The notes beneath the pieces are model-generated. The model had not been told where the DNA came from and did not search any database. It saw only the letters and a list, made by a program, of their open reading frames with translations. Both the position numbers and the translations under genes were made by a program. Positions 2,841-30,557 of a DNA stretch of 30,557 bases are shown here, one piece after another (position 1 is the first letter of the stretch; the number at the start of each line of letters is the position of its first letter). This DNA is from Alphaproteobacteria bacterium (GTDB lineage: Bacteria; Pseudomonadota; Alphaproteobacteria; Rs-D84; SZUA-605): contig JAVBPW010000008.1 of NCBI GenBank assembly GCA_031549385.1, forward strand, positions 1 through 30,557. The letters run 5' to 3'.

Positions 2841-2864
2841 TTTAAAAATTTTAGACCTAAATAA

Positions 2865-2941
<77 letters not shown>

Positions 2942-2958
2942 TATCTAAGCTTATTTTT

Positions 2959-3277: not shown

Positions 3278-3291
3278 ATTTTGTGAATAAG
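3278..3291 (+). promoter_or_regulatory. boxA-like element, spacer copy (copy 2)
   Basis: Exact 14-nt repeat of 1083-1096 (ATTTTGTGAATAAG). Confidence 0.35.
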
Positions 3292-3450
3292 TTATAATAT
3301 AGATTTGAGAGTTTTTAATCCGAAAAACTAAAATTTTATGTTTGTAAAATAATAATAAATTTTAAACTACGTCTAATCCGTTTAATCTTTACTTATTAGG
3401 TAATTTTATTATCCACTCATACGGTTTTGTTTTTCCGCAAATTAAAAGTT

Positions 3451-3491
3451 TGTGAAAAAAGAAAAGCTTAAAAATCGCGATTTTTCTTTGC
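3451..3491 (+). other. 5' arm of the 23S precursor processing stem
   Basis: TGTGAAAAAAGAAAAGCTTAAAAATCGCGATTTTTCTTTGC is the near-perfect reverse complement of 6401-6441. The core AAGCTTAAAAATCGCGATTTT is exact. Confidence 0.8.
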
Positions 3492-3621
3492 ATCTCATCA
3501 TAACGAAAGTTGTGATGAAATAACAAGATTGTTATAATCCTCAACAGATTATAACAAACAAAATTCTTCAAGCGTCACAATTAAATTTGTGATAAAGAGA
3601 ACTGTTTTTGATTATTAAAAT

Positions 3622-6377
<2,756 letters not shown>

Positions 6378-6400: not shown

Positions 6401-6441
6401 ATTCAAAGCAAAATAAAATCGCGATTTTTAAGCTTTTTTAC
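6401..6441 (+). other. 3' arm of the 23S precursor processing stem
   Basis: GCAAAATAAAATCGCGATTTTTAAGCTTTTTTACA pairs with 3451-3491. Confidence 0.8.
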
Positions 6442-6881: not shown

Positions 6882-6905
6882 AAAAAAAGGTGAAAATTCA
6901 CCTTT
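6882..6905 (-). terminator. Rho-independent terminator of the minus-strand gene 6904-7350
   Basis: Stem AAAGGTG (6886-6892) / CACCTTT (6899-6905). On the minus strand it is followed by a 7-nt U-run (complement of the A-run 6882-6888). It overlaps the stop codon. Confidence 0.7.
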
Positions 6906-7350
6906 AATTTGTTTGACTGAGAGTAAAACATCTTTTAATTCTCAACATTACCATTGATATATTTCCAGGTAATTCTTTTGTGTTGAGTAGATATTGGAAG
7001 GCTCTCCAAACCATTTCTTCACGAAAACTTTGATTGCTTGTACCAGTATCATCCCAATCTAATTTTTCTAAGATTGGGGTCATGTTATCCCACAGATCTT
7101 CATGAAGAGTTTGAAGACCTTGTTCAAAGTCCAATAAAAGATGTACTTTTAATGTGCTCTCGGCAATACCGAGGTTACAATAATCTTCAACAGACATACC
7201 TTCTTCTTTATTTATAAAGGTGAAACTTTCTTCCTTTAACCACATTATTATTGCAAAAAATGCAAATTTTTTTGAGTAGGTTGAATCTTTCCTTAAAAGA
7301 AATCTGTTCAGCTCTTTTTGGAGGATTTCTCCCATTTCCTTTGTATTCAT
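6904..7350 (-). CDS. Hypothetical protein, 148 aa (leader-tagged cassette gene A)
   Basis: Long ORF in stop-rich AT-rich DNA, with its own TTGACT/TAAATT promoter, the AAACTTAAAAA leader 10 nt before the ATG, and its own terminator. No recognisable motif. Confidence 0.75.
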   Translation of the reverse strand: MNTKEMGEILQKELNRFLLRKDSTYSKKFAFFAIIMWLKEESFTFINKEEGMSVEDYCNLGIAESTLKVHLLLDFEQGLQTLHEDLWDNMTPILEKLDWDDTGTSNQSFREEMVWRAFQYLLNTKELPGNISMVMLRIKRCFTLSQTN

Positions 7351-7360
7351 ACTAATTTAT

Positions 7361-7371
7361 TTTTTAAGTTT
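7361..7371 (-). promoter_or_regulatory. Conserved leader motif AAACTTAAAAA (copy for gene A)
   Basis: The minus strand reads AAACTTAAAAA, then ATAAATTAGT, then ATG. No SD. Confidence 0.7.
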
Positions 7372-7412: not shown

Positions 7413-7463
7413 TTGACAAAATTGTAATATTTTATAGACAAATTAGTAATTTAATTGTATTGT
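7413..7463 (+). promoter_or_regulatory. Promoter region of the DHFR gene, back to back with the gene A promoter
   Basis: TTGACAAA at 7413-7420, plus a second module TTATAGACAA (7431-7441) with a 17-nt spacer and TATTGT (7458-7463). The TTATAGACAA module recurs at 8030-8040. Confidence 0.5.
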
Positions 7464-7468
7464 TTTAT

Positions 7469-7482
7469 AAATTTTAAAAATC
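7469..7482 (+). promoter_or_regulatory. Leader motif variant AAATTTTAAAAATC (DHFR copy)
   Basis: Ends 6 nt before ATG 7489. No SD. Compare AAACTTAAAAATC at 23705-23717. Confidence 0.55.
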
Positions 7483-7488
7483 AAATAT

Positions 7489-8007
7489 ATGAGTAAAATA
7501 AATATTATTGCTGCAGTTGCTAAAAACTGGGGCATTGGTTATCAAGGAGGAATTCCTTGGAAATTGTCAGCAGACATGAAACAATTCAAAAAGCTTACTA
7601 TGGGTGAAAATCCCAATGTAATGAATACTGTGGTTATGGGGCGGAAAACTTTTCAAAGTCTTCCCAAAGGACCATTGCCGGGTAGAGTGAATGTTGTCCT
7701 GACTCGGGATGTTGATTTTAGCTATCCCGATGTTGTTGTGTTACATTCTTTTGAAGATGTTTTGAAAATGTCTGATGGTGCAACCGGTGAAATCTTTATT
7801 ATCGGTGGAGAGCAGGTTTATAAAGATGCTTTACCGTATGCAGATAGGATGTATTTAACATTGGTTTCTGCAAACCCACAATGCGATGCGTTTTTTCCTA
7901 AGTTTGATGCTTGGGATTGGGATCTTGTGTTGGATGAAATGTATTCGTGGGACGAAAAAAACGAATACTCTTACCGGTATTATTATTTAGAAAGAGGAGA
8001 AAATTAG
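7489..8007 (+). CDS. folA: Dihydrofolate reductase
   Basis: 172 aa with DHFR hallmarks: IAAVAKNWGIGYQGGIPW, VVMGRKTFQSLP, PLPGRVNVVLTR, IFIIGGEQVY. Confidence 0.9.
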   Translation: MSKINIIAAVAKNWGIGYQGGIPWKLSADMKQFKKLTMGENPNVMNTVVMGRKTFQSLPKGPLPGRVNVVLTRDVDFSYPDVVVLHSFEDVLKMSDGATGEIFIIGGEQVYKDALPYADRMYLTLVSANPQCDAFFPKFDAWDWDLVLDEMYSWDEKNEYSYRYYYLERGEN

Positions 8008-8029
8008 GAGCTTTATGCTCCTTTTTTTA
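8006..8029 (+). terminator. Rho-independent terminator of the DHFR gene
   Basis: AGGAGC (8006-8011) / GCTCCT (8017-8022), then a T-run. It overlaps the TAG stop. Confidence 0.75.
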
Positions 8030-8033
8030 TTTA

Positions 8034-8062
8034 TAGACAATTTTGAATTTAGAATATAAGAT
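8034..8062 (+). promoter_or_regulatory. Promoter of cassette gene C
   Basis: TAGACA (8034-8039) inside the repeated TTATAGACAA module. TATAAG or TAAGAT lies 15-17 nt downstream. Confidence 0.45.
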
Positions 8063-8080
8063 TGTTTTAAATTCAAAATC

Positions 8081-8091
8081 AAACTTAAAAA
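8081..8091 (+). promoter_or_regulatory. Conserved leader motif AAACTTAAAAA (gene C)
   Basis: Exact 11-mer, 8 nt before ATG 8100. No SD. Confidence 0.7.
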
Positions 8092-8099
8092 TTTTATCT

Positions 8100-8561
8100 A
8101 TGTTTAAATTAATTTTTTCAGAAACCCCCCAAAAGAATTTTAAAGGTTTATCAGATGCATTTTTGCATATTCTTTCAAAAAAGCAATTTAGTGTTGATGA
8201 ATTAAATGGTGTTGTTAGATTGACTTTGTTTAATTCTGGTGTTGTTGATGGTATTTATTGGGATCCGGAGCCTGCAGACCTTGCTGCACGTATTCAAATG
8301 GATAAATTTGGAAATAAATATTTCTTATTTGGAAAATATGTTCCAGGGGAAGTTTTCTTTGCTGGTAGTAAGTATTGTAAATGGTCGCCTGTTTCAATTC
8401 CAAAAGATGCTTTTGTTATTACTGATAATGGAAATGTTAGAAATAAGGCACTGAGATGTGTATTGACTCATTGTGGTAATATCTTTCAACTTCATGAGCC
8501 TAATGAAGTTAGGGCTTTTGAAAGTGAAAATGAATTTACTGCTTGGACTTTTGATTTTTGA
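8100..8561 (+). CDS. Hypothetical protein, 153 aa (cassette gene C, paralog of gene D)
   Basis: The ORF track starts at TTG 8043, but that would place the promoter and leader inside the gene. ATG 8100 sits right after the leader motif. The C-terminal half is collinear with 8659-9102. Confidence 0.75.
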   Translation: MFKLIFSETPQKNFKGLSDAFLHILSKKQFSVDELNGVVRLTLFNSGVVDGIYWDPEPADLAARIQMDKFGNKYFLFGKYVPGEVFFAGSKYCKWSPVSIPKDAFVITDNGNVRNKALRCVLTHCGNIFQLHEPNEVRAFESENEFTAWTFDF

Positions 8562-8581
8562 CCCCGAAAAGGGGTCTTTTT
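8560..8581 (+). terminator. Rho-independent terminator of gene C
   Basis: GACCCC-GAAAA-GGGGTC hairpin followed by TTTTTATTT. Confidence 0.8.
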
Positions 8582-8590: not shown

Positions 8591-8618
8591 TTGACAAATA
8601 ATATAATAAGTTTAGGAT
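8591..8618 (+). promoter_or_regulatory. Promoter of cassette gene D
   Basis: TTGACAAA (8591-8598), 16-nt spacer, TAGGAT (8613-8618). Confidence 0.5.
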
Positions 8619-8638
8619 TAATAGCATATTAAATTTTC

Positions 8639-8649
8639 AAACTTAAAAA
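8639..8649 (+). promoter_or_regulatory. Conserved leader motif AAACTTAAAAA (gene D)
   Basis: Exact 11-mer, 9 nt before ATG 8659. No SD. Confidence 0.7.
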
Positions 8650-8658
8650 AATCTATAT

Positions 8659-9102
8659 ATGAAAGAAATAAAAGAAGAAGCTCAACAGGAAATTATCCAG
8701 TTGATGTTTGATCCTTTGATTGATTTGGAAATTCATAAGCAATACCTTATTGAGTTTTCAAAAAATTTAGCTCCTACTGGATTGTTTTCTCCAGAAAATA
8801 AATCTGTGATATTTAATTCTAAAGCTTTTGGCTTTGAGAAAGATGGAACAGTTTACCTTTTTGGTAAAAAGTTATGGACTTTGGATGTTATTTATACATA
8901 CAGTGGTAAAATTTCTCCAAATTCTCCTAACCAAGCCGCTCCGGATACTTTTTATTCTAGGATTGGTTTGAATGATGACAAAAGTTTCCAACGGGTGCTT
9001 GGTCATTGTAGGCTTTTGAATGGGGCTATTGCTTCATTTTATAACGATGTCAAATTCGTTATCTTTGAAACTGAACAAGAATTTTTGAATTATGAATTTT
9101 AA
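8659..9102 (+). CDS. Hypothetical protein, 147 aa (cassette gene D, paralog of gene C)
   Basis: Shares ordered motifs with gene C: Y(F)LFGK, then VL(T/G)HC 46-47 residues later, then the C-terminal FE(S/T)E.EF. Confidence 0.75.
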   Translation: MKEIKEEAQQEIIQLMFDPLIDLEIHKQYLIEFSKNLAPTGLFSPENKSVIFNSKAFGFEKDGTVYLFGKKLWTLDVIYTYSGKISPNSPNQAAPDTFYSRIGLNDDKSFQRVLGHCRLLNGAIASFYNDVKFVIFETEQEFLNYEF

Positions 9103-9153: not shown

Positions 9154-9164
9154 AAACTTAAAAA
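9154..9164 (+). promoter_or_regulatory. Conserved leader motif AAACTTAAAAA (mini-ORF pair)
   Basis: Exact 11-mer, 2 nt before ATG 9167. A possible weak promoter precedes it: TTGTTT (9116-9121), 17-nt spacer, AATATT. Confidence 0.6.
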
Positions 9165-9166
9165 AT

Positions 9167-9319
9167 ATGAAAACAAAAATTAAAAATCTTTGGGACGATA
9201 TTCTTTGGTCCAACACCTTTACTTTTGTGGTGGTGTTATGTGCGTTTTATGGAGTGTATTTTGCATTTTATTTTCCAACAAAGTGGTTGGTTGAAATAAT
9301 CAAAACATCATTATTATGA
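9167..9319 (+). CDS. Small single-pass membrane peptide, 50 aa (not in the ORF track)
   Basis: Hand translation: MKTKIKNLWDDILWSNTFTFVVVLCAFYGVYFAFYFPTKWLVEIIKTSLL. Basic N-terminus plus one hydrophobic helix. Sits directly behind the leader motif. Confidence 0.45.
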   Translation: MKTKIKNLWDDILWSNTFTFVVVLCAFYGVYFAFYFPTKWLVEIIKTSLL

Positions 9320-9456
9320 AAAGGAATTTTTTGATTTGGAAAACACTTTGGTGGGAATGCAGAGATTTTACAATATTGAAAGTTATATTGTTTCTTGTTG
9401 TGGCCATAGATCTTATACCGCTTGCGGTAGTACATCTTATTAGATGTGTGTTTTAA
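9316..9456 (+). CDS. Small single-pass membrane peptide, 46 aa (not in the ORF track)
   Basis: ATGA start/stop overlap with the previous mini-ORF. Hand translation: MKRNFLIWKTLWWECRDFTILKVILFLVVAIDLIPLAVVHLIRCVF. Same architecture as the upstream peptide. A terminator follows immediately. Confidence 0.4.
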   Translation: MKRNFLIWKTLWWECRDFTILKVILFLVVAIDLIPLAVVHLIRCVF

Positions 9457-9486
9457 AAAGGGGCTTTTTACAGCCCCTTTGTTTTT
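9457..9486. terminator. Bidirectional terminator between the mini-ORFs and PFOR
   Basis: AAAGGGGCT (9457-9465) / AGCCCCTTT (9472-9480), with an A-run before and a T-run after. Confidence 0.8.
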
Positions 9487-12400
9487 TATACTTCGTTTTT
9501 GAATTTAGAAATGCTTGAGTAAATAGTATTTCTGTATTTGATGTTTCTTTTTGCACTTCTTATTAATCTGTTATAGTGCTTTTCATCTAATCGTTTTACT
9601 ATTCCATAGCGGTTTTCTTTTTCTACATATGATGCAAGTTCACCATCACCTAATTGGCTGTCCAATTGTAATGGAGAAACTCCCTTTCTTACATAGAGTT
9701 TTGGATCATAACGATATAATGGCCAGTGACCTGTCTTTACTGCTTCTTTTTGTTGGTTCAATTGGAACTTCATGTCTATTCCATGTAGAACACAAGGAGC
9801 GTAAGCTATAATCAATGATGGACCATTGTGTGCTTCGGCTTCTCTTATCGCTTTTACTGCTTGAGCTTCATTTGCACCTAATGCTATTCTTGCTACATAA
9901 ACGTTTCCTGATGCCATTGCAAGAAGACCTAAATCCTTCTTTGGTAGAACTTTACCAGTTGATGCAAACTTTGCTGCTGCACCTATTGGAGTTGATTTAG
10001 ATTGTTGCCCACCTGTGTTTGAATATACTTCAGTATCCAATACAAATATATTTACATTTTTGTCTGAATATAAAATATGGTCAAGACCACCATAGCCTAT
10101 GTCATAAGCCCAACCATCACCACCCATAATCCATAATGATTTCTTTATTAAAGATTGAGTTAATTCTGATAGTTCTTTTGCTTTTTCACTTTTGATGTTT
10201 TTCAATTTAGCATTAAGTTCTTTTACTAATGCTCTTTGTTCTTTTATTTCAACATCATTTGATTGTTTGTTATTTATTATTTGATTGATGAAATCTAAAC
10301 CTAGTTCATCTTTTAAATCTTTTAATAATATAACTGCAGTTTCTGTGTTTTTATCTAGTGCTAAACGCATTCCAAATCCATATTCTGCATTGTCTTCAAA
10401 TAATGAATTTGACCACGCTGGGCCACGTCCGTCTGAATTCTTTGTGTATGGAGTTGTTGGTAAGTTTCCACCGTAAATAGATGAACATCCTGTTGCGTTT
10501 GATATTAACATTCTGTCACCAAAGAGTTGTGTTAATAATTTAACATATGGAGTTTGTCCACATCCTGCACATGACCCTGAAAATTCAAATAATGGAGTTA
10601 CTAATTGATTATGTTTTGTTATGTTCATATTCAATAGCGATTTGTCTATATCAGGTAATGATGCACAATATTCAAATGCTCTTTCTTTTTGTTCGAGATT
10701 GTTTTGAATATCTTCCATTACTAATGCAGGAATTTCTTTTGTTTTCATTGGACAGTTTTCTACACATAATCCACAGCCTGTACAGTCGTGTGGGGATATT
10801 GTGATAGCGTAATTATATCCTTGTCCCAATTCTGGAGTTTTATAATCTGCACTTTTGAAATTATCTGGTGCATTTTCTAATTGTTCTTTTGTTAGCACTT
10901 TTGATCTGATGGATGCATGAGGACATACTAATGAACATTTTCCACATTGAATACAACTTTCTAAATTCCAACAAGGTACTTGAGATGCTATTGATCTTTT
11001 TTCGTATTTTGTTGTACCTGATGGAAATTGACCGTTTGTATCTGAGAATGCTGATACAGGAAGATCATCTCCTTTCCCTTTTATCATTTGACTTATTACA
11101 TTCTTTACAAAGTCTGGGGCTGATAATGGAACATTGTCTGACATTAATGGAGCTTTCTTACTTACAGCTTTTGGATGATCAAAACGATATAGATTTTCTA
11201 CTGCTTTATCTATAGCTGCTATATTCATTTCAATAATTTTTTCACCTTTTTTACCATATGTCTTTTTTACTGACCTTTTAATATAGTCAGAAATTTTTTC
11301 AAAATCAGCTAGCTTTGATAAATAGAAGAAACATGTTTGCATAATTGTGTTTGTTCTAAAACCTAATCCTAAATCACGAGCAAGACGACCTGCATCTATT
11401 ATGTAAATAGTTAAATTTTTATCAAGAATTTGCTTTTGAACTTCTTGTGGTATTTGATCCCAAAGAGTATCTGCTTCGTAAGGAGAATTGATTAATAATA
11501 TTCCACCTTCTTTTGCATTAGCTAATACATCTTGTTTAAAGAACATTGGAAAATGAGATACTGATGTGAAGTCTGCATTTTCTACTAGGTATGGACTTTT
11601 TATTTGTGTGTCTTTTATACGCAAGTGAGAACATGTAAATCCACCTGATTTTTTAGAATCATATACACTGTAATTTTGTACGTACTTTCCAGTATTGATA
11701 TTTATTATGTCAGCTGAATTTTTTGATGCTCCAACTGTTCCGTCTGAACCTAATCCAAAGAACATTGCTTTATAAGCATCATCTTTGAAGTCATATTTTA
11801 AATCATCAAGTGATAATTTTGTTACATCATCATTTATTCCTACTACAAATTCTTTTTTAGGATTTGGTTTTGATAGTTCTTCAAATATTTGTTTTACATG
11901 GTATGGTGTGAATTCTTTTGAACCTAGTCCATATCTTCCACCTATTACTTCTATACCTTCAAGTTTGTTTCTTTTTAATGCTGCTACTACATCCAAGAAT
12001 AATGGTTCACCAACTGAACCAGGTTCTTTTGTTCTGTCGAGTACTGCTATTTTTTTTACGTTTGATGGAAGTAGTTTTGAAAACTTTGCAACTGGAAAAG
12101 GGCGGTATAGGCGAATCTTTATTAAACCTAACTTTGCACCTTTTTTGTTTTCTTGGTCTATTGTTTCTTCTATAATATCACAAGATGATCCCATTGATAC
12201 TATAATGTTTTCTGCATCTTTGTTTCCATAGTATTCTACTGTGTCATAGTATCTTCCTGTTTTGTTTCCAAATTCGTTTAATACATCTTCTACTATTGAA
12301 ATTACATTATTATAAGTTGGGTTTTGAGCTTCACGACCTTGGAAGAATACGTCTGGGTTTTGAGCTGTTCCTCTTATACATGGTTTTTCTGGTGTTAAAC

Positions 12401-13019
12401 CATTATCTCTTTTTTCTTTAATTAATTTTTTATCTAATAATGATAAAATAGTTTCATCTGAAATTTGTTCTATTGATGTTATTTCATGTGATGTTCTGAA
12501 ACCATCAAAATAGTGTAAGAATGGAACTTTTGCTTTTAATGTTGATAAATGAGCAACCAATGCCATGTCATGTGATTCTTGGACATTGTTTGAACCTAAT
12601 ATTGCGAATCCTGTTTCTCTTACTGTCATGATGTCACTGTGGTCGCCAAAGATTGATAGAGCATGAGTTGCTACTGCTCTGGCTGCTACATGCATTACAA
12701 ATTGATGGCCTTCGCCGGCTATTTTATACATGTTTGGTATCATTAATAATAAACCTTGAGAAGCTGTGAATGTTGATACCTGAGCTCCAATTTGAAGAGC
12801 ACCATGTACTGCTCCTATAGCTCCTGCTTCTGATTGCATGATTGTAACGTTTGCTGTGTTACCGAAAATGTTTTTTCTTTGTTTTGATGAGAAAGTTTCA
12901 AAAATTTCTGCCATAGTTGATGAGGGGGTTATCGGATAGATAACAGCCAAATCAGATAAACGGTAGGCTATATCTGCTGCTGCTTCATTGCCATCGCAGA
13001 CGTAACTATTTTTAAACAT
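9486..13019 (-). CDS. nifJ: Pyruvate:ferredoxin (flavodoxin) oxidoreductase, single-chain
   Basis: 1177 aa. Two 4Fe-4S ferredoxin motifs (CIQCGKCSLVCP, CTGCGLCVENCP), the TPP-binding GGDGWAYDIGYGG, and the typical PFOR N-terminus DGNEAAA..AY. SD AAGGA. Confidence 0.95.
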   Translation of the reverse strand: MFKNSYVCDGNEAAADIAYRLSDLAVIYPITPSSTMAEIFETFSSKQRKNIFGNTANVTIMQSEAGAIGAVHGALQIGAQVSTFTASQGLLLMIPNMYKIAGEGHQFVMHVAARAVATHALSIFGDHSDIMTVRETGFAILGSNNVQESHDMALVAHLSTLKAKVPFLHYFDGFRTSHEITSIEQISDETILSLLDKKLIKEKRDNGLTPEKPCIRGTAQNPDVFFQGREAQNPTYNNVISIVEDVLNEFGNKTGRYYDTVEYYGNKDAENIIVSMGSSCDIIEETIDQENKKGAKLGLIKIRLYRPFPVAKFSKLLPSNVKKIAVLDRTKEPGSVGEPLFLDVVAALKRNKLEGIEVIGGRYGLGSKEFTPYHVKQIFEELSKPNPKKEFVVGINDDVTKLSLDDLKYDFKDDAYKAMFFGLGSDGTVGASKNSADIININTGKYVQNYSVYDSKKSGGFTCSHLRIKDTQIKSPYLVENADFTSVSHFPMFFKQDVLANAKEGGILLINSPYEADTLWDQIPQEVQKQILDKNLTIYIIDAGRLARDLGLGFRTNTIMQTCFFYLSKLADFEKISDYIKRSVKKTYGKKGEKIIEMNIAAIDKAVENLYRFDHPKAVSKKAPLMSDNVPLSAPDFVKNVISQMIKGKGDDLPVSAFSDTNGQFPSGTTKYEKRSIASQVPCWNLESCIQCGKCSLVCPHASIRSKVLTKEQLENAPDNFKSADYKTPELGQGYNYAITISPHDCTGCGLCVENCPMKTKEIPALVMEDIQNNLEQKERAFEYCASLPDIDKSLLNMNITKHNQLVTPLFEFSGSCAGCGQTPYVKLLTQLFGDRMLISNATGCSSIYGGNLPTTPYTKNSDGRGPAWSNSLFEDNAEYGFGMRLALDKNTETAVILLKDLKDELGLDFINQIINNKQSNDVEIKEQRALVKELNAKLKNIKSEKAKELSELTQSLIKKSLWIMGGDGWAYDIGYGGLDHILYSDKNVNIFVLDTEVYSNTGGQQSKSTPIGAAAKFASTGKVLPKKDLGLLAMASGNVYVARIALGANEAQAVKAIREAEAHNGPSLIIAYAPCVLHGIDMKFQLNQQKEAVKTGHWPLYRYDPKLYVRKGVSPLQLDSQLGDGELASYVEKENRYGIVKRLDEKHYNRLIRSAKRNIKYRNTIYSSISKFKNEV

Positions 13020-21945: not shown

Positions 21946-22514
21946 TTATTTCCTTTGTTTCGAATACTGAATTCACAACCACAATAGTTTTGATTGTAGA
22001 TATCATATTTGGTTATTAAATCTTTCTTTCTTTGTGGATTTGAAATTTCTTTCCAATTATAATCAAAATATGGGAGGTTGTTTTTTATCTCAGATGCAGC
22101 TTTATTTACTTGATTTATGTCTTTGAAACGAGAAATACCTAATGTAGATGAAATTATATCAAAGTTGTTTTCTTTTGCATATTGGAAAGCTTTTTTTAAT
22201 CTCATAGCAAAACACTTTTCACAACGTTTTCCTTGCTCTGGTTCAGATTCTAATCCATTTATTTCTTTTAAATAATCTTGATGATTTGGTTTTATTTCTG
22301 AAAAACTAACGTCTAATTCTTTACAAAGTCTTTTATTTGTATCTAATCTTTTTTGATATTCGGTTTCGGGAAATATGTTTGGATTGTAAAAAAGAACTTC
22401 AAAATTTATATCGTTGTTTTTTAATAAAGTTATTATTTCTATACTGCATGGAGCACAGCAAGATAGAAGCAATAATTTTTTGTTTTTCAAAGTTGCAATT
22501 GACATTTGGTTCAT
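21942..22514 (-). CDS. queH: Epoxyqueuosine reductase QueH (DUF208)
   Basis: CCAPCS, YNPNI.P..EY, CEKCF..RL and YCGCEFS motifs in the QueH order. The start is uncertain: ATG 22514 or 22505 is preferred over the TTG 22550 used by the track. Confidence 0.8.
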   Translation of the reverse strand: MNQMSIATLKNKKLLLLSCCAPCSIEIITLLKNNDINFEVLFYNPNIFPETEYQKRLDTNKRLCKELDVSFSEIKPNHQDYLKEINGLESEPEQGKRCEKCFAMRLKKAFQYAKENNFDIISSTLGISRFKDINQVNKAASEIKNNLPYFDYNWKEISNPQRKKDLITKYDIYNQNYCGCEFSIRNKGNK

Positions 22515-22560
22515 AGAACTTAAAATAGAGGAACATATCAGGATTTTCAAGGAGATAAGT

Positions 22561-23661
22561 TTGAAGAAGTTTTTATTAGTTTTTGGCAGTTTAGTTTTAT
22601 TATCAAGTTTTGCATCTGCGGCTTCTCCTTGGGCTTATAAATTTAATGGGTATCTTAATAACATTGTGGCTTATGGCGACTTAGAAAGATACAGTACAAC
22701 TGATAATAAATTTAAGTATTCTTTAGATGCTCGAGTTTTAGGGGAACTTTCTTATAAGAGTAGGGATTTTACTATTGGACTTAGAGCAGAAGCAGAATCA
22801 GATTATATCTTTAAAGAAGGTTATGTTTTTTTACAATTTCCTTTTATCAGATTTGAAGCAGGACGAGCTTTAAATTTGGCAGAAAAACTTCATGTTGCAG
22901 TGCCAGAAGCTTCTTTTTCTCGTTTTAATAATGATAGCTATATTTATGATCTGGTGAATAATACTCAGGTTGCTCATTTGACTACTACTGCTCTTAATTC
23001 TGATGATAAATCTCAAAAATTGTCTATTATTTCTTCTAAATGGAAAGGGTTTCAAATAGGGGCTTCTTATGCTCCAGGGCAAGCTTCAGGTTATAATAAA
23101 AAATATGAATTTTATGATGACGAAAATGATGGGCATTTTGAAAATTCCTATTCTGCTGGAATTAGATTTATGCAAGATTGGGGATATTATAAATTGGCTG
23201 TTTCTGGTGGTTTTTTAGAAACTAATAAAGCTAATGATATAAGGATTGATCTTAGTGGAGTTAAAGATAGTTTTGAAAAAAGAACTGAATATTCTTCTGG
23301 TATTAATCTTACTCTTGGAAATGTTGTTATTGGGGCAGCTGGACGTATTATAAATGAAGTAGCTCCTTATAACCCTTCTGGGAATTCATATGAAGGATAT
23401 GTGGCAGCTGGTGGAATTTCTTATACTTTCTTACAATATGCAGTTTCCTTCGATTACCAAAGGTCTGTTATGGCTGGACAGTATAATATTGAGGGAGATG
23501 ACATAGTTAACCTTTATCAAGTGTCTTTTAAGTATAATCCTAAGAAAAAGTGGCATTTATGGCTTTCTGTAGGGTATATTGATATGTATGATGAGACTGA
23601 GTTGGAGGAAAATGAGACTAAGGGAGTGGTTGGTTTGTTAGGATTAACATACGTTTTCTAA
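22561..23661 (+). CDS. Outer-membrane porin-like beta-barrel protein
   Basis: A TTG start at 22561, 6 nt after SD AAGGAG, gives the signal peptide MKKFLLVFGSLVLLSSFASAA. Alternating beta-strand pattern. C-terminus GLLGLTYVF with terminal Phe. The N-terminal extension in the track overlaps queH and is rejected. Confidence 0.75.
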   Translation: MKKFLLVFGSLVLLSSFASAASPWAYKFNGYLNNIVAYGDLERYSTTDNKFKYSLDARVLGELSYKSRDFTIGLRAEAESDYIFKEGYVFLQFPFIRFEAGRALNLAEKLHVAVPEASFSRFNNDSYIYDLVNNTQVAHLTTTALNSDDKSQKLSIISSKWKGFQIGASYAPGQASGYNKKYEFYDDENDGHFENSYSAGIRFMQDWGYYKLAVSGGFLETNKANDIRIDLSGVKDSFEKRTEYSSGINLTLGNVVIGAAGRIINEVAPYNPSGNSYEGYVAAGGISYTFLQYAVSFDYQRSVMAGQYNIEGDDIVNLYQVSFKYNPKKKWHLWLSVGYIDMYDETELEENETKGVVGLLGLTYVF

Positions 23662-23667
23662 AAATAC

Positions 23668-23696
23668 TTGACAAATATTAAGTTTTATGCTATATT
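23668..23696 (+). promoter_or_regulatory. Promoter of cassette gene F
   Basis: TTGACAAA (23668-23675), 17-nt spacer, TATATT (23691-23696). Confidence 0.6.
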
Positions 23697-23704
23697 ATTA
23701 GTAT

Positions 23705-23715
23705 AAACTTAAAAA
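23705..23715 (+). promoter_or_regulatory. Conserved leader motif AAACTTAAAAA (gene F)
   Basis: Exact 11-mer, 8 nt after the -10 and 10 nt before ATG 23726. No SD. Confidence 0.7.
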
Positions 23716-23725
23716 TCAAAAAAAC

Positions 23726-24172
23726 ATGAATATAACTGAGAAAGTCCGGGAGAACCTGGAAAAATATAAGCCGCTGGGTGTGACAGAAAAGGAATTGTTT
23801 GCTTTTCCTACCCAATTAGGTAGGGATCTTTGGCAGCTTGAAAGCAAATTTGTGGAGATTGTCCGCAGAAGAAATGCTACCTATCTTAGGTATTGGATAT
23901 TCGATAAAGGGCGGTTGCCCAAGCAAAAATACCGGAAGTTGCCGGTAAGCCAAATACAAGGGGAAGACATTGTTAAAGTTTTTTTCCTGAAAGATTGGAA
24001 TCTTTTGCTTGAGCAATACTTGATAACTGAGGGGCATTTGCCAGATCCGTTTGTTCATCTTGCTTTTTTATCAGGACATTTCAAAAGATTTTGTACTGAT
24101 AGGCGGTTTGAACTGCTTGATCATCAGAAAAAGCAATACGCTTATTATAGCAATTTAATGAAGGGGGAGTAA
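23726..24172 (+). CDS. Hypothetical protein, 148 aa (cassette gene F)
   Basis: Long ORF with its own promoter, leader and terminator. Its first 60 nt are 26/60 G+C by hand count, against 14/60 for the first 60 nt of lptA. Confidence 0.75.
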   Translation: MNITEKVRENLEKYKPLGVTEKELFAFPTQLGRDLWQLESKFVEIVRRRNATYLRYWIFDKGRLPKQKYRKLPVSQIQGEDIVKVFFLKDWNLLLEQYLITEGHLPDPFVHLAFLSGHFKRFCTDRRFELLDHQKKQYAYYSNLMKGE

Positions 24173-24190
24173 TCTCCCTTTCTTTTTTAT
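24161..24190 (+). terminator. Rho-independent terminator of gene F
   Basis: GGGAG (24165-24169) / CTCCC (24174-24178) with the stop codon in the loop, then TTTCTTTTTT. Confidence 0.6.
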
Positions 24191-24194
24191 CTGA

Positions 24195-24223
24195 TTGACA
24201 AAATTTAACGTAGTTGTTATGGT
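24195..24223 (+). promoter_or_regulatory. Promoter of cassette gene G
   Basis: TTGACAAA (24195-24202), 17-nt spacer, TATGGT (24218-24223). Confidence 0.55.
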
Positions 24224-24243
24224 TGTTTCATCTGATAATCTTT

Positions 24244-24254
24244 AAACTTAAAAA
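24244..24254 (+). promoter_or_regulatory. Conserved leader motif AAACTTAAAAA (gene G)
   Basis: Exact 11-mer, 4 nt before ATG 24259. No SD. Confidence 0.7.
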
Positions 24255-24258
24255 TAAT

Positions 24259-24744
24259 ATGAATAAAAAATTTGAAGCGTCTTGGGTTGCCACTACGGTG
24301 GAGGCTAATTATCTTTCATTTCCGAAGTATTTGAAGGATATGATTGATTTTGATCAAAATTGGTTTACAGTCATTAATTTCTGGATGATGTGTGATTATG
24401 ATAAATCACGCTTTTCCGATTTTAGCAAAGGTGAGTATTTCTTTGCTTACTTACCTGAAAATGCTCGCGATGAATGTAAAAAATATTTACCGTTTGATGA
24501 AGAAAATGAATTAAGTTTCATTAAGTCGGTATATTTGCGTTGTGAAGACAAAGGATTTGAGTTTTTGAAAACATATTTGCTTTTCAAAAAAGCAATTCTG
24601 GATTTGGTTTTGGATTTTGCTATTTTGACTGGAAATTATGATGTGGTTGATTTTTGTAGCGCTTTTAAGCTTAGTGAAATTCAACAAAAGAAAATTGATT
24701 TCTATGACAAAATTTTGGAAAGAGATTTAGATTTAATTTCTTAA
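24259..24744 (+). CDS. Hypothetical protein, 161 aa (cassette gene G)
   Basis: The track start TTG 24214 lies inside the promoter. ATG 24259 follows the leader motif. The 3' end overlaps the convergent rpe stop by 12 nt. Confidence 0.72.
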   Translation: MNKKFEASWVATTVEANYLSFPKYLKDMIDFDQNWFTVINFWMMCDYDKSRFSDFSKGEYFFAYLPENARDECKKYLPFDEENELSFIKSVYLRCEDKGFEFLKTYLLFKKAILDLVLDFAILTGNYDVVDFCSAFKLSEIQQKKIDFYDKILERDLDLIS

Positions 24745-25359
24745 ATCCGAAATTATTTTTTTGTAATCATTTGATTTGAAAATTGCGCTGCCTACGTCTA
24801 ATAAGTGGGCAGTTTTTTTACATAATTTTGCTGTTTGGATTGTTATACCACCATCCATATGAATTGGAAGTTTTGGATAAAGTTTTTTTATTTCTTTTGC
24901 TTTCTGTAAACCATATTCATCAAATTTTTGTCCACCTGCACCTGCTTTTACTGTCATTACTAAAACAAAGTCCAAATCTTTTAAGAATGGTTTTATTTTT
25001 TCAAGGGGTGTTGGAAGGTCTATTGTTAATCCTGCTTGAATTTTATTTTCTTTTATCAATTTTAATAAAGGTATAGGATTTTTTGTTGTTTCAATATGAA
25101 AACATAACCCCTGAGGTTTTGCTTTGATATATTTTTTTACTTCCTTTTCATTATCTTGAACCATTAATTGAATGTTAATAGGTAAATCAGATATTTTTTT
25201 TACTTTATTTAAAAGCTTTATTCCACCAAATTTATTTGGTACAAATTTTCCATCCATTACGTCATAATGAAGTCCGTCTGCTTTTGCTTTTTTTAAAGCG
25301 TCTAATTCTTCTTTTAATTTTTCTTTATTTATTGATAAAAGAGAAGGGTAGATTAACAT
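24733..25359 (-). CDS. rpe: Ribulose-phosphate 3-epimerase
   Basis: PSLLS...GLHYDVMDGKFVPN...MTV.AGAGGQKF...DGGI motifs. The preferred start is ATG 25359 (SD AAGGAG 8 nt upstream), which overlaps the ftsA stop as TAATG. Confidence 0.9.
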   Translation of the reverse strand: MLIYPSLLSINKEKLKEELDALKKAKADGLHYDVMDGKFVPNKFGGIKLLNKVKKISDLPINIQLMVQDNEKEVKKYIKAKPQGLCFHIETTKNPIPLLKLIKENKIQAGLTIDLPTPLEKIKPFLKDLDFVLVMTVKAGAGGQKFDEYGLQKAKEIKKLYPKLPIHMDGGITIQTAKLCKKTAHLLDVGSAIFKSNDYKKIISDLRN

Positions 25360-26567
25360 TATAGTTTCTCCTTTATCCAATTTTTTAATTGTTCGTAAAA
25401 GCCTTGTTCTGGAGGAGCAATGTCTACAAGTTTGTGATGTTGAGCGTATAATAATGCGCCTATTAAACTTGCTGATTCTGGTCCTGGGTTTTCAAAACCT
25501 TGGATTGACATTGGACGGCCTATTTTACATTCTGATTTAAGATAAGATTCTGCAAGGTAATCTATATTTCTTATGTTTGCTCCACCACCAGTTATAATTA
25601 CATGTTGAAGATTTGTTTTGAAATTCTTTTTTTCTAAGAAATCATTTATGTCTGCAAAATAGCTTGATAAATATTCTGATATGATTGATAGAATTTCATC
25701 CAAGTTATAACTTTTTTCTATTGTCTGTCCGTTTGGTTGAATTTGTCTTAAATTGATACTTCTTAAATGTGCATCATTTGGCTTTATGCAGCTGTTATCT
25801 TTTATTAATTGTAGAGCGTCTTTTTCACTTATATGAAAACGATATATTAATTTTTGAATTATTTGAGCTATACCTTTGTTGAAGATTTCTATTCCAATTA
25901 ATATTCCTTTTGAGAAAAAGACTAGGTTTGTAAAGTGTGAACCTATTTCAATTATCAATGCTTTTTCTGATTGTTTGATATTGTCTGAAAAAGATAATGA
26001 AGATGCATAAGGTGAACATATTATCTTGTTTAAATTAATATGGCAGTTTTGTATCATGTTTTCTATTGTTTTATATTCTTCTTGTGGAAGAGTTATAAAC
26101 AATGTTTGCATTGTTAGGTAACACGCATATGAGCCTATTGGATTCATTGAATATTTTTGGTTGTCCAAAATATAACGTAGGGCAAATGAATGAATTATCT
26201 TTTTATTTATATATTTTTGAGAAGTTAGAGTTTGTGTTAAATTGTCTAAATCTTCTTGTGAAATTGGTTTTGTTAGTGTTAGATTTTTTGTTATTCCTTG
26301 TAGGGAAGTTTCTATATTAAATGAATTTATACAAACGTAGGCGTCTTTAAATTTAAAGTTTGGAATTTCTTTTTCTATTTCATCCATTAAAGTTGCTATC
26401 ATTTTACCAAGTTGACTTGGGGAATTTAATGATATGTATTGTAATTGTGAAAGATTTATTTGTTTTATTGTTATTACTCGTAATGGCTCACGAAGCGCAA
26501 CCAAAATTGTAATCTTGGATGAGCCTATATCAATTATGTTGATGTAGTCTTTTATTTTTTTTGCCAT
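25359..26567 (-). CDS. ftsA: Cell division protein FtsA (actin-like ATPase)
   Basis: IIDIGSSKI phosphate-1 motif, IEIGSHFT, VIITGGGANI adenosine motif, and a C-terminal amphipathic helix FYEQLKNWIKEKL that resembles the FtsA membrane-targeting sequence. Confidence 0.75.
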   Translation of the reverse strand: MAKKIKDYINIIDIGSSKITILVALREPLRVITIKQINLSQLQYISLNSPSQLGKMIATLMDEIEKEIPNFKFKDAYVCINSFNIETSLQGITKNLTLTKPISQEDLDNLTQTLTSQKYINKKIIHSFALRYILDNQKYSMNPIGSYACYLTMQTLFITLPQEEYKTIENMIQNCHINLNKIICSPYASSLSFSDNIKQSEKALIIEIGSHFTNLVFFSKGILIGIEIFNKGIAQIIQKLIYRFHISEKDALQLIKDNSCIKPNDAHLRSINLRQIQPNGQTIEKSYNLDEILSIISEYLSSYFADINDFLEKKNFKTNLQHVIITGGGANIRNIDYLAESYLKSECKIGRPMSIQGFENPGPESASLIGALLYAQHHKLVDIAPPEQGFYEQLKNWIKEKL

Positions 26568-26597
26568 GTTGCTTATAGTATATAATTTTTTTTTACT

Positions 26598-27512
26598 TTA
26601 TTCTAGTACTATATCGGCAGGAAATTTATTTCCTTTCAAAAATTCAGCTGTTTTTAAAGGAGATTTACCTTCTGCTTGAATTTCATTTATTTGTAAGGCT
26701 GTCGAATCGTTACATGATATTAAAAGCGAATCGTTTAATGTTGTTCCATTTTCTTTTATACTGTCTTTATATGATGGAGTTGATGAGATTACTTTATATC
26801 TTTTTCCATTATACATAAAATACATATTTAAATCTGGATAGTATGCTCTTACTTTTCGGTCTATTGCAAATGCATCTTCATTCCAATTAATCTTCAAATC
26901 TTCTTTTGAAATTTTTTGGGTATAAGTAGCGTCTTCATTATCTTGTGGGGTTGGTGTTATTTGGTCTATATGATTTATAACTTCATTTACTAGATATGCT
27001 CCTAAATTAGATAATTCTTCGCATAGTGAATCATAAGTTGTTTCATCGGTGATGCTTACTTTTTCAATTGCTAACATATCGCCTGTGTCCATACCTGCGT
27101 CCATTTGCATAATTGTTACACCTGTTTCTTCATCATTGTTTATTATTGATGAACGAATAGGATTTGGGCCTCGGTATTTTGGCAATATTGATGGGTGAAT
27201 ATTTATACATCCATATTTTGGTGATTGTAAAATTGATGATGGAAGAATTAATCCGTATGCGTAAACGACTGCAATGTCTGCGTCTAAGTCTTTGAACTGT
27301 TTTACTGTTTGTTCATCTTTAAAATTTGATGGAGTAAATACTGGAATTTTTAATTCTTCTGCTTTTATATGTATTGGAGTTTTTTGTAATTCCATTCCAC
27401 GTTTTGCTGGACGAGGTTGTTGAGTATAAACTGCAACAATTTGATGGTTATCAAATAATGTTTGCAATGTTGGAATTGCAAAATCAGGGGTCGCCATAAA
27501 AATTATTTTCAT
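26598..27512 (-). CDS. fmt: Methionyl-tRNA formyltransferase
   Basis: MKIIFMATPDFA..., NIHPSILPKYRGPNPI (formyltransferase HxSLLPxxRG motif) and a C-terminal tRNA-binding domain. SD AAGGA. Confidence 0.92.
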   Translation of the reverse strand: MKIIFMATPDFAIPTLQTLFDNHQIVAVYTQQPRPAKRGMELQKTPIHIKAEELKIPVFTPSNFKDEQTVKQFKDLDADIAVVYAYGLILPSSILQSPKYGCINIHPSILPKYRGPNPIRSSIINNDEETGVTIMQMDAGMDTGDMLAIEKVSITDETTYDSLCEELSNLGAYLVNEVINHIDQITPTPQDNEDATYTQKISKEDLKINWNEDAFAIDRKVRAYYPDLNMYFMYNGKRYKVISSTPSYKDSIKENGTTLNDSLLISCNDSTALQINEIQAEGKSPLKTAEFLKGNKFPADIVLE

Positions 27513-27650: not shown

Positions 27651-30557
27651 ATGAATTTCAAGAAAATTTTATTACCACTAATTGGAATTATAGGATTGTT
27701 TTCAACAAATGTTATAGCGCAAAGTGCAACATGGACAGGTGCTGATGCTCCAATTCCTAATCCTGCATATTATTCTTGTGGTGGAAGTATAGATGGTGGA
27801 AATAACGATTGTATTACTATACTTAGTTGGTCTAACTCTTCAAATATATCAGTAACAGGTGTTGGTAGTGAAGATAATTATGCAAACTTTATTGCAAATC
27901 TTAACATTAGTAGTTCTTATTCAGCATTATTGGATATAAGATCTGGAGTTAATTATTTAAACATTTATAATGATGTTGGTAATTCTATGACTGCAGATAC
28001 TTCTATTATAAGAGTATTAAGTAATGCAGAATATCATGGGAATATTGTTAATTTAGGTACTATGAGAAATACTAATACTGGTACAAGTTATACAATGCAA
28101 TTTATCAGTAAATTATACGGTAATATTTATAATGGTTGGAATGGAATAACAGGGGCAGAATCAGTTACAAATGATAATGCAAGAATTACAGCAACTGCAA
28201 CATCTGTAGTTCAAAGACAGATTATTATTTTCAATGATGGTATGACTGGAATTATAGATAATTCAGGTCTTATTGGGACATATAATCCCAAAACTGGTAC
28301 TGTATACATAGATGATGCAATAAGATTTACTACGGGAGATTATGGATTAACAGGGGATACAGGTATAAGATTCATAAACAGAGAAACAGGTATTATAGGA
28401 GGAGAATATGGGGGGTTATCTATTGAAACTGGTGCAACAGTTTATGGAGATATTATAAATTTAGGGTTAATGACTAGTCAATCAATAGCATCAGGATCAG
28501 GGATTTCTAATCTTACTAGTACTGGCGTTATAAATGGTAATATTTATAATGGTTGGGATGGTAATGGTAGTACATCAATAAATACCTCAGCTAAAGTTAC
28601 TGGATACACAGGAATGTCATTATCAAACTTTTCTGGAGGTTTATATAACTATGGTATAATAGGAGATACTTACTTAACAAGAAATGGAACTACAGCTAAC
28701 GCTGTACAAGGTCTTAATCTTATAATGATGGGTGTAGCAAAAGAGGTAATAAATTACAAAGGAGCTAAAATTATAGGTTCAACATATGGTATGTATGTTG
28801 GTGGAACTTTTACAAATGGAGTAACAAACTTAGGATTAATACAAGGTGGAACATCTTTAACAACCCATTATGGGTTATGGTTTGGCATGACTGGTAATCT
28901 AATAAATGGAAGTATAACAAATACAGTAGAAGAAAATTTACAAGCAATTATTTCTGGATATTCAGGCATTAAATTAAATGGAGGTACAGGTAACATAGAA
29001 AATTATGGTGTTATACAAGGAACGGCATTTGGTATTGATATCCCAATAGGAGCATATGCTCTAAATGGAAAAGTTATAAATTACGAAGGTGGGGTAATTC
29101 AAGGTGGTAGTTATGCTCTTTACAATCCAGCAATAGGTATTTTTTTAAATTATCAAGGTAATGGAACATTAGTTGGAGGGATTTATACAGCAGGTTCAAG
29201 TGATGGTGGGTATATATTTTCTAATATGAACAGAACACCTATTAATAAAACAAATAGCATATCAGGAGGTACAGCAAATAATATAAATTATTATGGTGGA
29301 ATTGTTAATAGCATTGATTATGGAACAACTATTTTAAAATTACAATACTCTCAATCAGATATTAATTTAAATTGGACACAACCTGCTCAAATAACAGGCG
29401 TTCCTGGATACTTAACTCTTAATGGTATAATAAATAATATAACAATTGATGGTAATTCAATAACAAGTACAGGAAAATTTTTAATTGCTCAAACAACAAA
29501 TCAAGCAATAACATATTCAAATTTATCAACAATCACAGCAACAGATAATAACACACATGCTAATGGATATGGTTTTGATTTAACTAATAAATCATTAATA
29601 TATTCTTATGACTATTCAGTAACTTCTCAAAATAATAAGAGATTGTGGTTATTCTATGCACTTAATTGGTGGACAGAAGGTGATGCTTCTCATTTAGAAG
29701 CAAAATGGTTTAGTGTTTCTGGTACATATGCTTCAACAAGGATAAATTCATCAGATATACAAATAAGAAACATTGGAACATCTTCAGACTTTAAAACTTT
29801 AAATATAAATAACTCTATAACTTCTGTTAACAACGATGCTGCTATAAAAATTATTGATGGTGAAAATTATTTAAATATATTTGTATATCAACCAATAACA
29901 GGAAAAGCTGGAGAAAAAGCAATAAGTTTTGAAGGTGGAAATTTCTATGGTTATATAAGTAATAATTCTAATCTAATAGGAATAAATGGAACTGCAACAG
30001 GTTATGCTATATATAATGCTGGTTTAAATCAGGTAAATTATAGAGGTTCAGGTATATTAACAGGTAAGTTATATTCAGGTGGAGGTTTTATTTTCTCTGA
30101 AATGATAAGTGCACCAATTGCAAATACAATAGAAGGTAATGGAAAAATTTCATACTATAGTGGAACAATAAATAGTATTGATTATGGTTATACACAATTA
30201 AATCTAGCATACACTGCAGGCAATATGACTGTTGCAAAAGTAACAACACCAGGAGCATTGGAATTCAACGGAGTAATATTAAATTATACTGGAACAATTG
30301 GAACAGGAAGATACTTAGTTGGAACATCAACAAATGGTACGGTATCACAATTAAATCTATCTACAAGAATTAATGGTAGTTCCACTATTCCTACAAATTA
30401 TGAAGTGACATATTATACAGCAAATTCAAACAAAGAATTGTGGATGGCATACACACTTGCATATTGGACACAAGGTGATAATTCACACTTAGATATAGCA
30501 AGAAGCTTTACATGCACAGGTAATGACTGTACATCAACAGTTGCATCAACTGATATC
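27651..30557 (+). CDS. Large secreted repetitive surface protein, autotransporter-passenger or beta-helix-like (partial, over 969 aa, runs off the window)
   Basis: Absent from the ORF track because no stop is reached. Hand translation is open for 969 codons from ATG 27651. Signal peptide MNFKKILLPLIGIIGLFSTNVIAQSA. Gly/Asn/Thr/Ile-rich with recurring G.I.N.G..G short repeats and long internal duplications. Confidence 0.85.
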   Translation, partial: MNFKKILLPLIGIIGLFSTNVIAQSATWTGADAPIPNPAYYSCGGSIDGGNNDCITILSWSNSSNISVTGVGSEDNYANFIANLNISSSYSALLDIRSGVNYLNIYNDVGNSMTADTSIIRVLSNAEYHGNIVNLGTMRNTNTGTSYTMQFISKLYGNIYNGWNGITGAESVTNDNARITATATSVVQRQIIIFNDGMTGIIDNSGLIGTYNPKTGTVYIDDAIRFTTGDYGLTGDTGIRFINRETGIIGGEYGGLSIETGATVYGDIINLGLMTSQSIASGSGISNLTSTGVINGNIYNGWDGNGSTSINTSAKVTGYTGMSLSNFSGGLYNYGIIGDTYLTRNGTTANAVQGLNLIMMGVAKEVINYKGAKIIGSTYGMYVGGTFTNGVTNLGLIQGGTSLTTHYGLWFGMTGNLINGSITNTVEENLQAIISGYSGIKLNGGTGNIENYGVIQGTAFGIDIPIGAYALNGKVINYEGGVIQGGSYALYNPAIGIFLNYQGNGTLVGGIYTAGSSDGGYIFSNMNRTPINKTNSISGGTANNINYYGGIVNSIDYGTTILKLQYSQSDINLNWTQPAQITGVPGYLTLNGIINNITIDGNSITSTGKFLIAQTTNQAITYSNLSTITATDNNTHANGYGFDLTNKSLIYSYDYSVTSQNNKRLWLFYALNWWTEGDASHLEAKWFSVSGTYASTRINSSDIQIRNIGTSSDFKTLNINNSITSVNNDAAIKIIDGENYLNIFVYQPITGKAGEKAISFEGGNFYGYISNNSNLIGINGTATGYAIYNAGLNQVNYRGSGILTGKLYSGGGFIFSEMISAPIANTIEGNGKISYYSGTINSIDYGYTQLNLAYTAGNMTVAKVTTPGALEFNGVILNYTGTIGTGRYLVGTSTNGTVSQLNLSTRINGSSTIPTNYEVTYYTANSNKELWMAYTLAYWTQGDNSHLDIARSFTCTGNDCTSTVASTDI
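28119..28556 (+). repeat. Intragenic repeat with a 417-nt (139-aa) period
   Basis: The identical 21-mer GGTAATATTTATAATGGTTGG (GNIYNGW) occurs at 28119-28139 and 28536-28556, with similar flanking context (LG.M...GNIYNGW.G). Confidence 0.8.
29287..30557 (+). repeat. Intragenic module duplication of about 265-290 aa
   Basis: YYGGIVNSIDYG...LWLFYALNWWTEGDASHL (from 29287) is collinear with YYSGTINSIDYG...LWMAYTLAYWTQGDNSHL (from 30153). The W-T-x-G-D module openers lie at 27733, 29669 and 30465. Confidence 0.8.

Follow-up and report, generated by a model that had tools for sequence, protein, structure and literature searches.

How might a bacterium bring under common control a set of genes that look foreign to its chromosome and lack the Shine-Dalgarno (SD) sequence used by most of its core genes? 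This question is raised by the alphaproteobacterial contig JAVBPW010000008.1, which was analysed over its whole length of 30,557 bp (hereafter the window; ~30% GC). Between a porin gene and rpe, the window carries two small open reading frames (ORFs), F and G, each preceded by one and the same leader motif of 11 nucleotides, AAACTTAAAAA, here called the tag. The same tag stands before genes of another locus, island 1, which lies ~14 kb from F and G (island 2); the tagged set comprises at least six genes, or seven when a variant before a dihydrofolate reductase (DHFR) gene is included. Statistically the observation is strong and can be called solid, and a relative shows it as well. We propose, tentatively and with a little less than even confidence, that this shared leader element replaces the SD sequence and co-regulates acquired genes, most likely at translation initiation.

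AAACTTAAAAA is the commonest 11-mer of the contig, with seven exact copies where Markov models expect 0.2-0.34, and it is enriched more than 100-fold over a control set of unrelated, mostly AT-rich loci, in whose 884 kb a single copy occurs. When one mismatch is allowed, none of 100 shuffles reaches the observed count. Six of the seven copies are in sense orientation and precede an ATG by 2-10 nt, namely that of genes A, C, D and E1 of island 1 and of F and G; the seventh lies inside murJ. Alignment of the sites on the motif shows information content at background directly outside it, save for a pyrimidine at -1, and no longer repeat surrounds the copies in the window. The conserved block is limited to YAAACTTAAAAA, i.e. 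(Y)AAACTTAAAAA, and the flanks are unrelated, as are the island-encoded proteins apart from a weak paralogy of C and D. Because similarity ends at the motif edges and the proteins are unrelated, it is the 11-mer itself that appears to be conserved, and not the remnant of a duplicated module. This agrees with the sequence-only reading of this stretch, which had argued from the second locus that the module is dispersed and did not arise by local tandem duplication.

The motif is neither palindromic nor repeated. Its spacing to the ATG is tight (2-10 nt), and its distance to the promoter is variable and of two kinds: in A, F and DHFR, 5-8 nt separate it from the -10 hexamer, whereas the separation is 18-22 nt in C, D, E1, G and a gene of the related contig L081. 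This 4.4-kb metagenome contig is the sole true relative among the genome and metagenome collections searched. Its tagged gene, a DUF6896 gene unrelated to those of the window, is preceded by TTGACA-18-TATGAT, 22 nt, AAACTAAAAAA, 8 nt and the ATG, where AAACTAAAAAA is a one-base deletion version of the tag in the same promoter-plus-tag architecture. From this shared architecture, the element appears to have been retained across the lineage. A literature search on the 11-mer or DUF6896 returned nothing relevant. As far as sequence can tell, selection maintains the 11-mer as a cis element specific to this lineage.

The 16S ribosomal RNA (rRNA) encoded in the window retains the CCUCC anti-SD, and GGAG or AGGA precedes the majority of the contig's core genes. 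The best anti-SD duplex lies between -3.4 and -10.5 kcal/mol in 13 of 17 core genes and between +1.6 and -1.3 kcal/mol in the island genes, whose SD strength is thereby lower than that of the core genes (Mann-Whitney p = 5e-4). At -1.3 and -0.8 kcal/mol, F and G fail as canonical SD-led genes, as the first inspection had claimed. In addition, the G+C content at third codon positions (GC3) of seven of the eight island ORFs lies above that of every core gene (core range 0.12-0.235; p = 1.3e-4); GC3 was used in place of a codon-fit comparison, which was dropped because it is confounded by strong strand bias. The atypical composition first suggested by the 26 G+C among the initial 60 nt of F holds for F as a whole, which is the GC3 extreme (0.416) and a clear outlier (39.4% GC overall), and applies to G in modest degree (GC3 0.284). 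RNA folding leaves both the F and the G leader unstructured. By these comparisons, the motif occupies the SD position in compositionally foreign accessory genes.

F and G are found as first described and behave as coding sequences. The stop-free length of F is matched in one of 5000 shuffles and that of G in none of 5000, and codon-position periodicity is present in both (p = 6e-4 and p = 6e-5, respectively). F is missing from the source annotation and from the public protein collection, although the porin, DHFR and proteins A, C, D and G of this contig do appear there; E1 and E2, like F, are not in that collection, and all three are probably unannotated genes. The promoter word TTGACAAA, reported together with the exact leader before both F and G, is present at 23668 and 24195, positioned as the -35 of the two best sigma-70-type promoter matches among local intergenic regions. 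It consists of the sigma-70 -35 hexamer followed by AA, and since its count in the window is at expectation (4 found, 3.8 expected), only its position is informative. F has the terminator of its own that had been assigned to it, whereas G lacks a proper one, ending in the weak AT hairpin noted before. The G stop (24742-24744) falls, also as described, 12 nt inside rpe, whose own stop is at 24735-24733 on the minus strand, and the overlap does not lengthen the rpe C-terminus. The promoter and terminator scan found no terminator between the porin stop and the F promoter, the -35 hexamer of which begins 7 nt after that stop; porin transcripts therefore probably read into F and end at the F terminator. 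With their promoters predicted, F and G are best described as two independent single-gene transcription units for small, soluble orphan proteins.

Comparison of F and G with Pfam, PHROGs, NCBIfam, PADLOC and PDB sequences gave nothing meaningful (best PHROG E 0.089); a word-indexed search of 5.8 billion proteins returned none for F and only itself for G, and an exhaustive phmmer comparison of F with 1.84 billion representative proteins gave 0 matches. All called island proteins are singleton clusters. Among viral contigs there were no relatives of F, G, A or D, and the promoter-plus-tag pattern gave single, chance-level matches only; one viral contig with three copies of the tag (L122) was rejected, as two of them lie within coding sequence. 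Both proteins are moderately hydrophilic (grand average of hydropathy, GRAVY, -0.57 for F and -0.23 for G) and predicted to be largely helical. The remote-homology and structure check proposed for them thus ended without a homologue and with models of too low confidence to use: the single-sequence AlphaFold2 predictions are unreliable, with a predicted local distance difference test (pLDDT) score of 47.5 for F and 44.5 for G, which makes their Foldseek matches, all with E > 1, meaningless, and these were discarded. No library searched having yielded a homologue, F and G are not housekeeping genes. A type II toxin-antitoxin pair, with F basic and G acidic, was considered and rejected, as F and G are set apart by a terminator and by the promoter of G, and neither protein has a family match. 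At a guess, the products are small accessory proteins of the host-interaction or immunity type.

We therefore favour, with the caution stated above, the following course of events for the tagged genes, which is set out conditionally. Transcription from a sigma-70-type promoter would yield a short unstructured leader in which the exact 11-mer stands 2-10 nt before the ATG and an SD is absent. The element would act on the mRNA at translation initiation as a shared operator or enhancer, and a sequence-specific trans factor, either a protein or a small RNA, would read it; the factor itself is postulated, and in its small-RNA form it could be a transcript carrying UUUUUAAGUUU. The acquired genes would then be translated as one post-transcriptional regulon, apart from the SD-led core genes. 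The tight ATG spacing, the strand specificity, the SD position and the unstructured leaders argue for a role in the mRNA and not for a promoter-anchored DNA operator. The 16S rRNA of the organism contains no complement to the motif, so that a simple rRNA-pairing enhancer is not supported; from this and from the exact 11/11 conservation, which goes beyond generic A/U-rich binding, we infer the trans factor.

Several facts weigh against this proposal, and the missing 16S complement belongs among them. The transcription start sites are predictions only, the sample of the genome is 30 kb, the trans factor is postulated, and F is not called as a gene by the source annotation. Conservation in relatives amounts to one site on one 4.4-kb contig. 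E1 and G leave very little room between motif and ATG, 2 nt and 4 nt, respectively. The DHFR, a normal metabolic enzyme, has a variant tag only, and the set does not consist purely of orphan genes. Furthermore, two SD-led core genes, those for pyruvate:ferredoxin oxidoreductase (PFOR) and Fmt, have less strict ACT(T)AAAA strings in their leaders, the PFOR leader having AACTAAAAAAAA directly before its SD, and AAAATTAAAAA lies 14 nt before murJ. With such strings before PFOR, fmt and murJ, the 11-mer may be no dedicated tag but an extreme case of A-rich leaders in general.

Other explanations give the same observations a different meaning. In this uncultured, Rickettsiales-like lineage, the tag YAAACTTAAAAA at the SD position could mark a dedicated channel for acquired orphan genes, served by a translation factor that binds the tag or by a factor like RfaH that recruits the ribosome. 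Accessory or effector genes of foreign origin would then make up a regulon of their own, kept apart from the SD-dependent translation of housekeeping genes; we consider this unlikely. The 11-mer could also be an ops-like co-transcriptional signal that, on the non-template strand, pauses RNA polymerase and recruits a specialised NusG paralogue, which would shield the SD-less foreign genes from Rho and bring the ribosome. The tag has in common with ops a length of ~12 nt, strand specificity, a place in the transcribed leader and a variable promoter distance, the genes here are without SD and atypical in codon composition, and RfaH-controlled genes are likewise described as SD-less and rich in rare codons, the ops-RfaH module being able to drive even an SD-less reporter (PMC7819879). 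However, the tag is unrelated in sequence to the ops consensus GGCGGTAGnnTG, for which a search with up to two mismatches gave five matches (5.6 expected), all in the rRNA operon and none near F, G or island 1. Nor does the motif have the G-rich features of a consensus pause site; known ops elements precede long operons and are not fixed near an ATG, whereas here each short gene has its own copy; and the 30 kb of contig show no NusG paralogue. An ops-like signal is rather improbable. A similarly low probability is given to a DNA operator, at which a transcription factor would bind the 11-mer at or just after the transcription start and create a transcriptional regulon. For A, F and DHFR the motif begins 5-8 nt after the -10, around +1, in the classic position of a repressor site, and exact 11/11 conservation would suit sequence-specific binding by a protein; yet in C, D, E1, G and the L081 gene it lies 18-22 nt after the best -10, so that its place is constant only relative to the ATG, and it is always on the sense strand and neither palindromic nor repeated. 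A CtrA- or IHF-type site as the identity of the motif was ruled out by inspection.

The tag might also have no function and be the relic of one promoter-leader module that was spread by duplication, gene conversion or a scar of cassette recombination. Identical copies, a spacing of about one cassette (558, 515 and 539 nt between the copies of island 1) and small genes of like size would all follow from such a history. It is hard to reconcile with promoters, spacers, ORFs and terminators that are unrelated right up to the motif edges, with cassette ends that lack an attC-like RYYYAAC...GTTRRRY structure, and with the variant copy before an unrelated gene in L081, which implies long-term retention, given that the core proteins of the two contigs are 64-76% identical; the likelihood of a relic is accordingly small. 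Coincidence in AT-rich, low-complexity DNA, with F and G as spurious ORFs, is the least credible explanation and can practically be set aside. A genome of ~30% GC, in which A-rich strings are common before start codons, and a source annotation that does not call F would invite it, but seven copies against ~0.3 expected, the shuffles at one mismatch, the enrichment over control loci, and the ORF lengths and codon periodicity of F and G all speak against it.

The preferred reading, a leader element that stands in for the SD and is read at translation initiation, has counterparts among known systems. Targets of phage T4 RegA and regulons of the CsrA type have translational operators in their initiation regions. 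As in those systems, a short sequence at the start codon is common to unrelated mRNAs and would allow one trans factor to co-regulate them, but the sites of RegA and CsrA are degenerate in sequence and mostly found together with an SD or overlapping one, whereas here an exact 11-mer replaces it. RfaH of Enterobacteria acts on foreign genes that have no SD and many rare codons and whose leaders bear a 12-nt element (PMC7819879); the likeness lies in a short, strand-specific, exact leader element before acquired genes, and SD-less targets with atypical codon usage are what the island genes are. The difference is that ops occurs once per long operon, far upstream, and the tag occurs 2-10 nt before each ATG. 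In Bacteroidia, initiation regions are SD-independent, A-rich and 'Kozak-like' (PMC6847099). These leaders resemble the present ones in being A-rich, unstructured and without an SD directly upstream of the ATG, but there the SD is absent genome-wide and adenines are position-specific, whereas here core genes are SD-led and an accessory subset has the 11-mer. SD-free translation of the Bacteroidia type was rejected for this organism, as most core genes of the contig have an SD and the 16S rRNA is alphaproteobacterial-like (~83%).

Mobile elements that carry small cargo genes offer a second comparison. F resembles a phage moron in being self-contained, with its own promoter and terminator and a GC content unlike that of its neighbours, but morons have no common leader word, and F and G are flanked by a porin gene and rpe; prophage cargo was rejected for want of a prophage context, a significant PHROG match or a relative on viral contigs. 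Integron cassette arrays are likewise made of small unrelated ORFs of like size with a short conserved sequence near the start, and one ORF here encodes a DHFR. In contrast to integron cassettes, however, the island genes have their own promoters and intrinsic terminators in place of a common Pc, and the DHFR is of ordinary bacterial type. Integron cassettes were rejected, since the sole match to the attC pattern lies inside the DHFR coding sequence and the cassette ends are GC-rich stems with T tracts; no integrase was found among the identified ORFs of at least 100 aa, the Pfam scan not taking in every ORF.

Did F and G arrive by insertion, as the sequence-only reading held? Its picture of inserted cassettes is plausible and partly supported. 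In its favour are the composition of F, the orphan status of both genes and the fact that L081 has no F or G downstream of rpe; no insertion scar or flanking repeat was found around F and G in the window, and porin-rpe adjacency without them, the arrangement to be sought in relatives, was not seen in L081, the only relative. Downstream of rpe, L081 has instead a convergent gene for a Fic and winged helix-turn-helix (HTH) protein (2797-3831), followed by tRNA-Ser(gga) (4059-4150), and the contig ends 540 nt past the Fic gene. Short repeats of the GGGGTGTTTTTT type occur inside and upstream of the Fic gene, and the tRNA-Ser region after it is likely an integration hotspot. As another accessory gene stands beside rpe in L081, the site differs between the relatives. 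It is plausible, from this comparison of two contigs, that the space between porin and rpe is a variable spot and that F and G came by insertion. With proteins only 64-76% identical, the difference at rpe could equally reflect general rearrangement.

Table 1. Features of the F/G locus and of island 1 in the window.
Feature	Position	Strand	Description
Gene A cassette	6904..7371	-	ORF 6904-7350, 148 aa, orphan ORF (ORFan); motif 7371-7361, 10 nt before ATG
DHFR cassette	7435..8022	+	ORF 7489-8007; Pfam DHFR_1, E = 1e-52; own terminator
Gene C cassette	8034..8576	+	ORF 8100-8561, 153 aa, ORFan; motif 8081-8091; own promoter and terminator
Gene D cassette	8591..9102	+	ORF 8659-9102, 147 aa; motif 8639-8649; promoter TTGACA-16-TAGGAT
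E1/E2 unit	9154..9480	+	motif 9154-9164; E1 9167-9319; E2 9316-9456; terminator 9457-9480
Porin gene (context)	22561..23661	+	Pfam Porin_4, E = 1.4e-13
F promoter (predicted)	23668..23696	+	TTGACA-17-TATATT, 11/12 matches, TG before -10
F leader motif	23705..23715	+	AAACTTAAAAA, 8 nt after -10 hexamer, 10 nt before ATG
Gene F	23726..24172	+	148 aa, pI 9.5, no SD, GC3 0.416, ORFan
F intrinsic terminator	24160..24181	+	9-bp GC stem and T tract, -12.5 kcal/mol, overlaps F stop
G promoter (predicted)	24195..24223	+	TTGACA-17-TATGGT, 10/12 matches, TG before -10
G leader motif	24244..24254	+	AAACTTAAAAA, 20 nt after -10 hexamer, 4 nt before ATG
Gene G	24259..24744	+	161 aa, pI 4.7, no SD, GC3 0.284, ORFan
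AT hairpin	24730..24747		GATTTAA-TTTC-TTAAATC, 7 bp, -5.5 kcal/mol (minus strand), weak; spans G and rpe stops
rpe (context, core gene)	24733..25359	-	Pfam Ribul_P_3_epim, E = 4e-50; GGAG SD; 64% identical to L081 rpe

The porin gene upstream of F starts with TTG after an AGGAG SD and has its own promoter, TTGACA-16-TAAAAT, at 22499-22526. Each gene of the islands has its own predicted sigma-70-type promoter (9-11 of 12 matches), and most have their own terminator. The promoter of gene A reads TTGACT-17-TAAATT and that of the DHFR gene TAGACA-17-TATTGT; the DHFR leader carries the variant AAATTTTAAAAA 8 nt before the ATG. The enzyme is ~40% identical to plasmid and chromosomal DHFRs, its best PDB matches are 3ia4 and 2zza (162-aa DHFR chains), and its GC content is raised (38%). 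C and D are distant paralogues that align over 83 aa with 28% identity (E = 0.003, seven-sequence database). Both end in an acidic/aromatic C-terminus and contain a G..Y.FGK segment, which is loosely like 'GIKYIFHGRG' of the L081 DUF6896 protein but has no Pfam match. E1 and E2 are likely membrane proteins, judging from their long hydrophobic stretches, and the ATGA overlap of their reading frames suggests translational coupling.

The host is an AT-rich, divergent alphaproteobacterium and belongs to a lineage that is poorly sampled, since searches with the porin, rpe and FtsA gave no relative besides L081: neither the porin query nor the FtsA alignment matched any genome contig, and the other matches of rpe among metagenome contigs were all at ≤42% identity and without shared synteny. 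Two further candidates, P0005 and P0006, were rejected as coming from unrelated organisms. L081 itself is 64% identical to the window in rpe and 76% in FtsA, and its rpe product carries the NCBI label 'MAG: Rickettsiales bacterium'. The window holds a complete rRNA operon, whose 16S rRNA is closest to Alphaproteobacteria (~83% identity, among rRNA-bearing replicons in PLSDB), envelope genes of the Gram-negative type (LptA/B/C, KdsD, BamD, MurJ and the Porin_4 porin), and, among others, rpe, ftsA, fmt and a gene for a PFOR of 1177 aa. The single-chain PFOR (9486-13019), in an alphaproteobacterial contig of Rickettsiales-like character, hints at an anaerobic or microaerophilic lifestyle of the host. 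The last ORF, at 27651-30557, runs past the contig end; its product is large and secreted, has a signal peptide and a Gly/Asn/Thr/Ile-rich composition, is encoded with internal repeats of ~400 nt and is probably an autotransporter or an adhesin-like surface protein.

The organization of the window has some peculiarities of its own. GC skew is positive across its whole length and strand asymmetry is strong, with T3 and G3 abundant in plus-strand genes and A3 and C3 in minus-strand genes; most core genes (PFOR, murJ, lptABC, kdsD, hemW-like, queH, rpe, ftsA and fmt) lie on the apparent lagging strand. ftsA stands outside the dcw cluster in the order fmt-ftsA-rpe (25359-27512), its stop overlapping the rpe start region, and the ftsA-rpe adjacency is kept in L081 (703-2767). 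There, ftsA is flanked by a 78-nt element (452-529 and 2038-2115) whose copies are 86% identical, internally palindromic and end in ...TTCGGAATGACA; it resembles a miniature inverted-repeat transposable element (MITE) or a repeat of the Rickettsia-palindromic-element type, and is absent from the window. A palindrome of the window, AAATCGCGATTT, occurs on either side of the 23S rRNA gene (3472-3483 and 6416-6427) and is overlapped by one-mismatch versions of the leader tag; most simply, it is a 23S processing stem unrelated to the tag.

Should the tag truly serve as a recognition element, one bacterium would keep two classes of initiation region, an SD for its core genes and an exact 11-mer for its acquired ones. 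This would provide a handle on how new genes come under common control in reduced, host-associated alphaproteobacteria. In addition, searching sequences for the tag would then help to find candidate accessory or effector genes that lack annotation, such as F, which the source annotation had missed.

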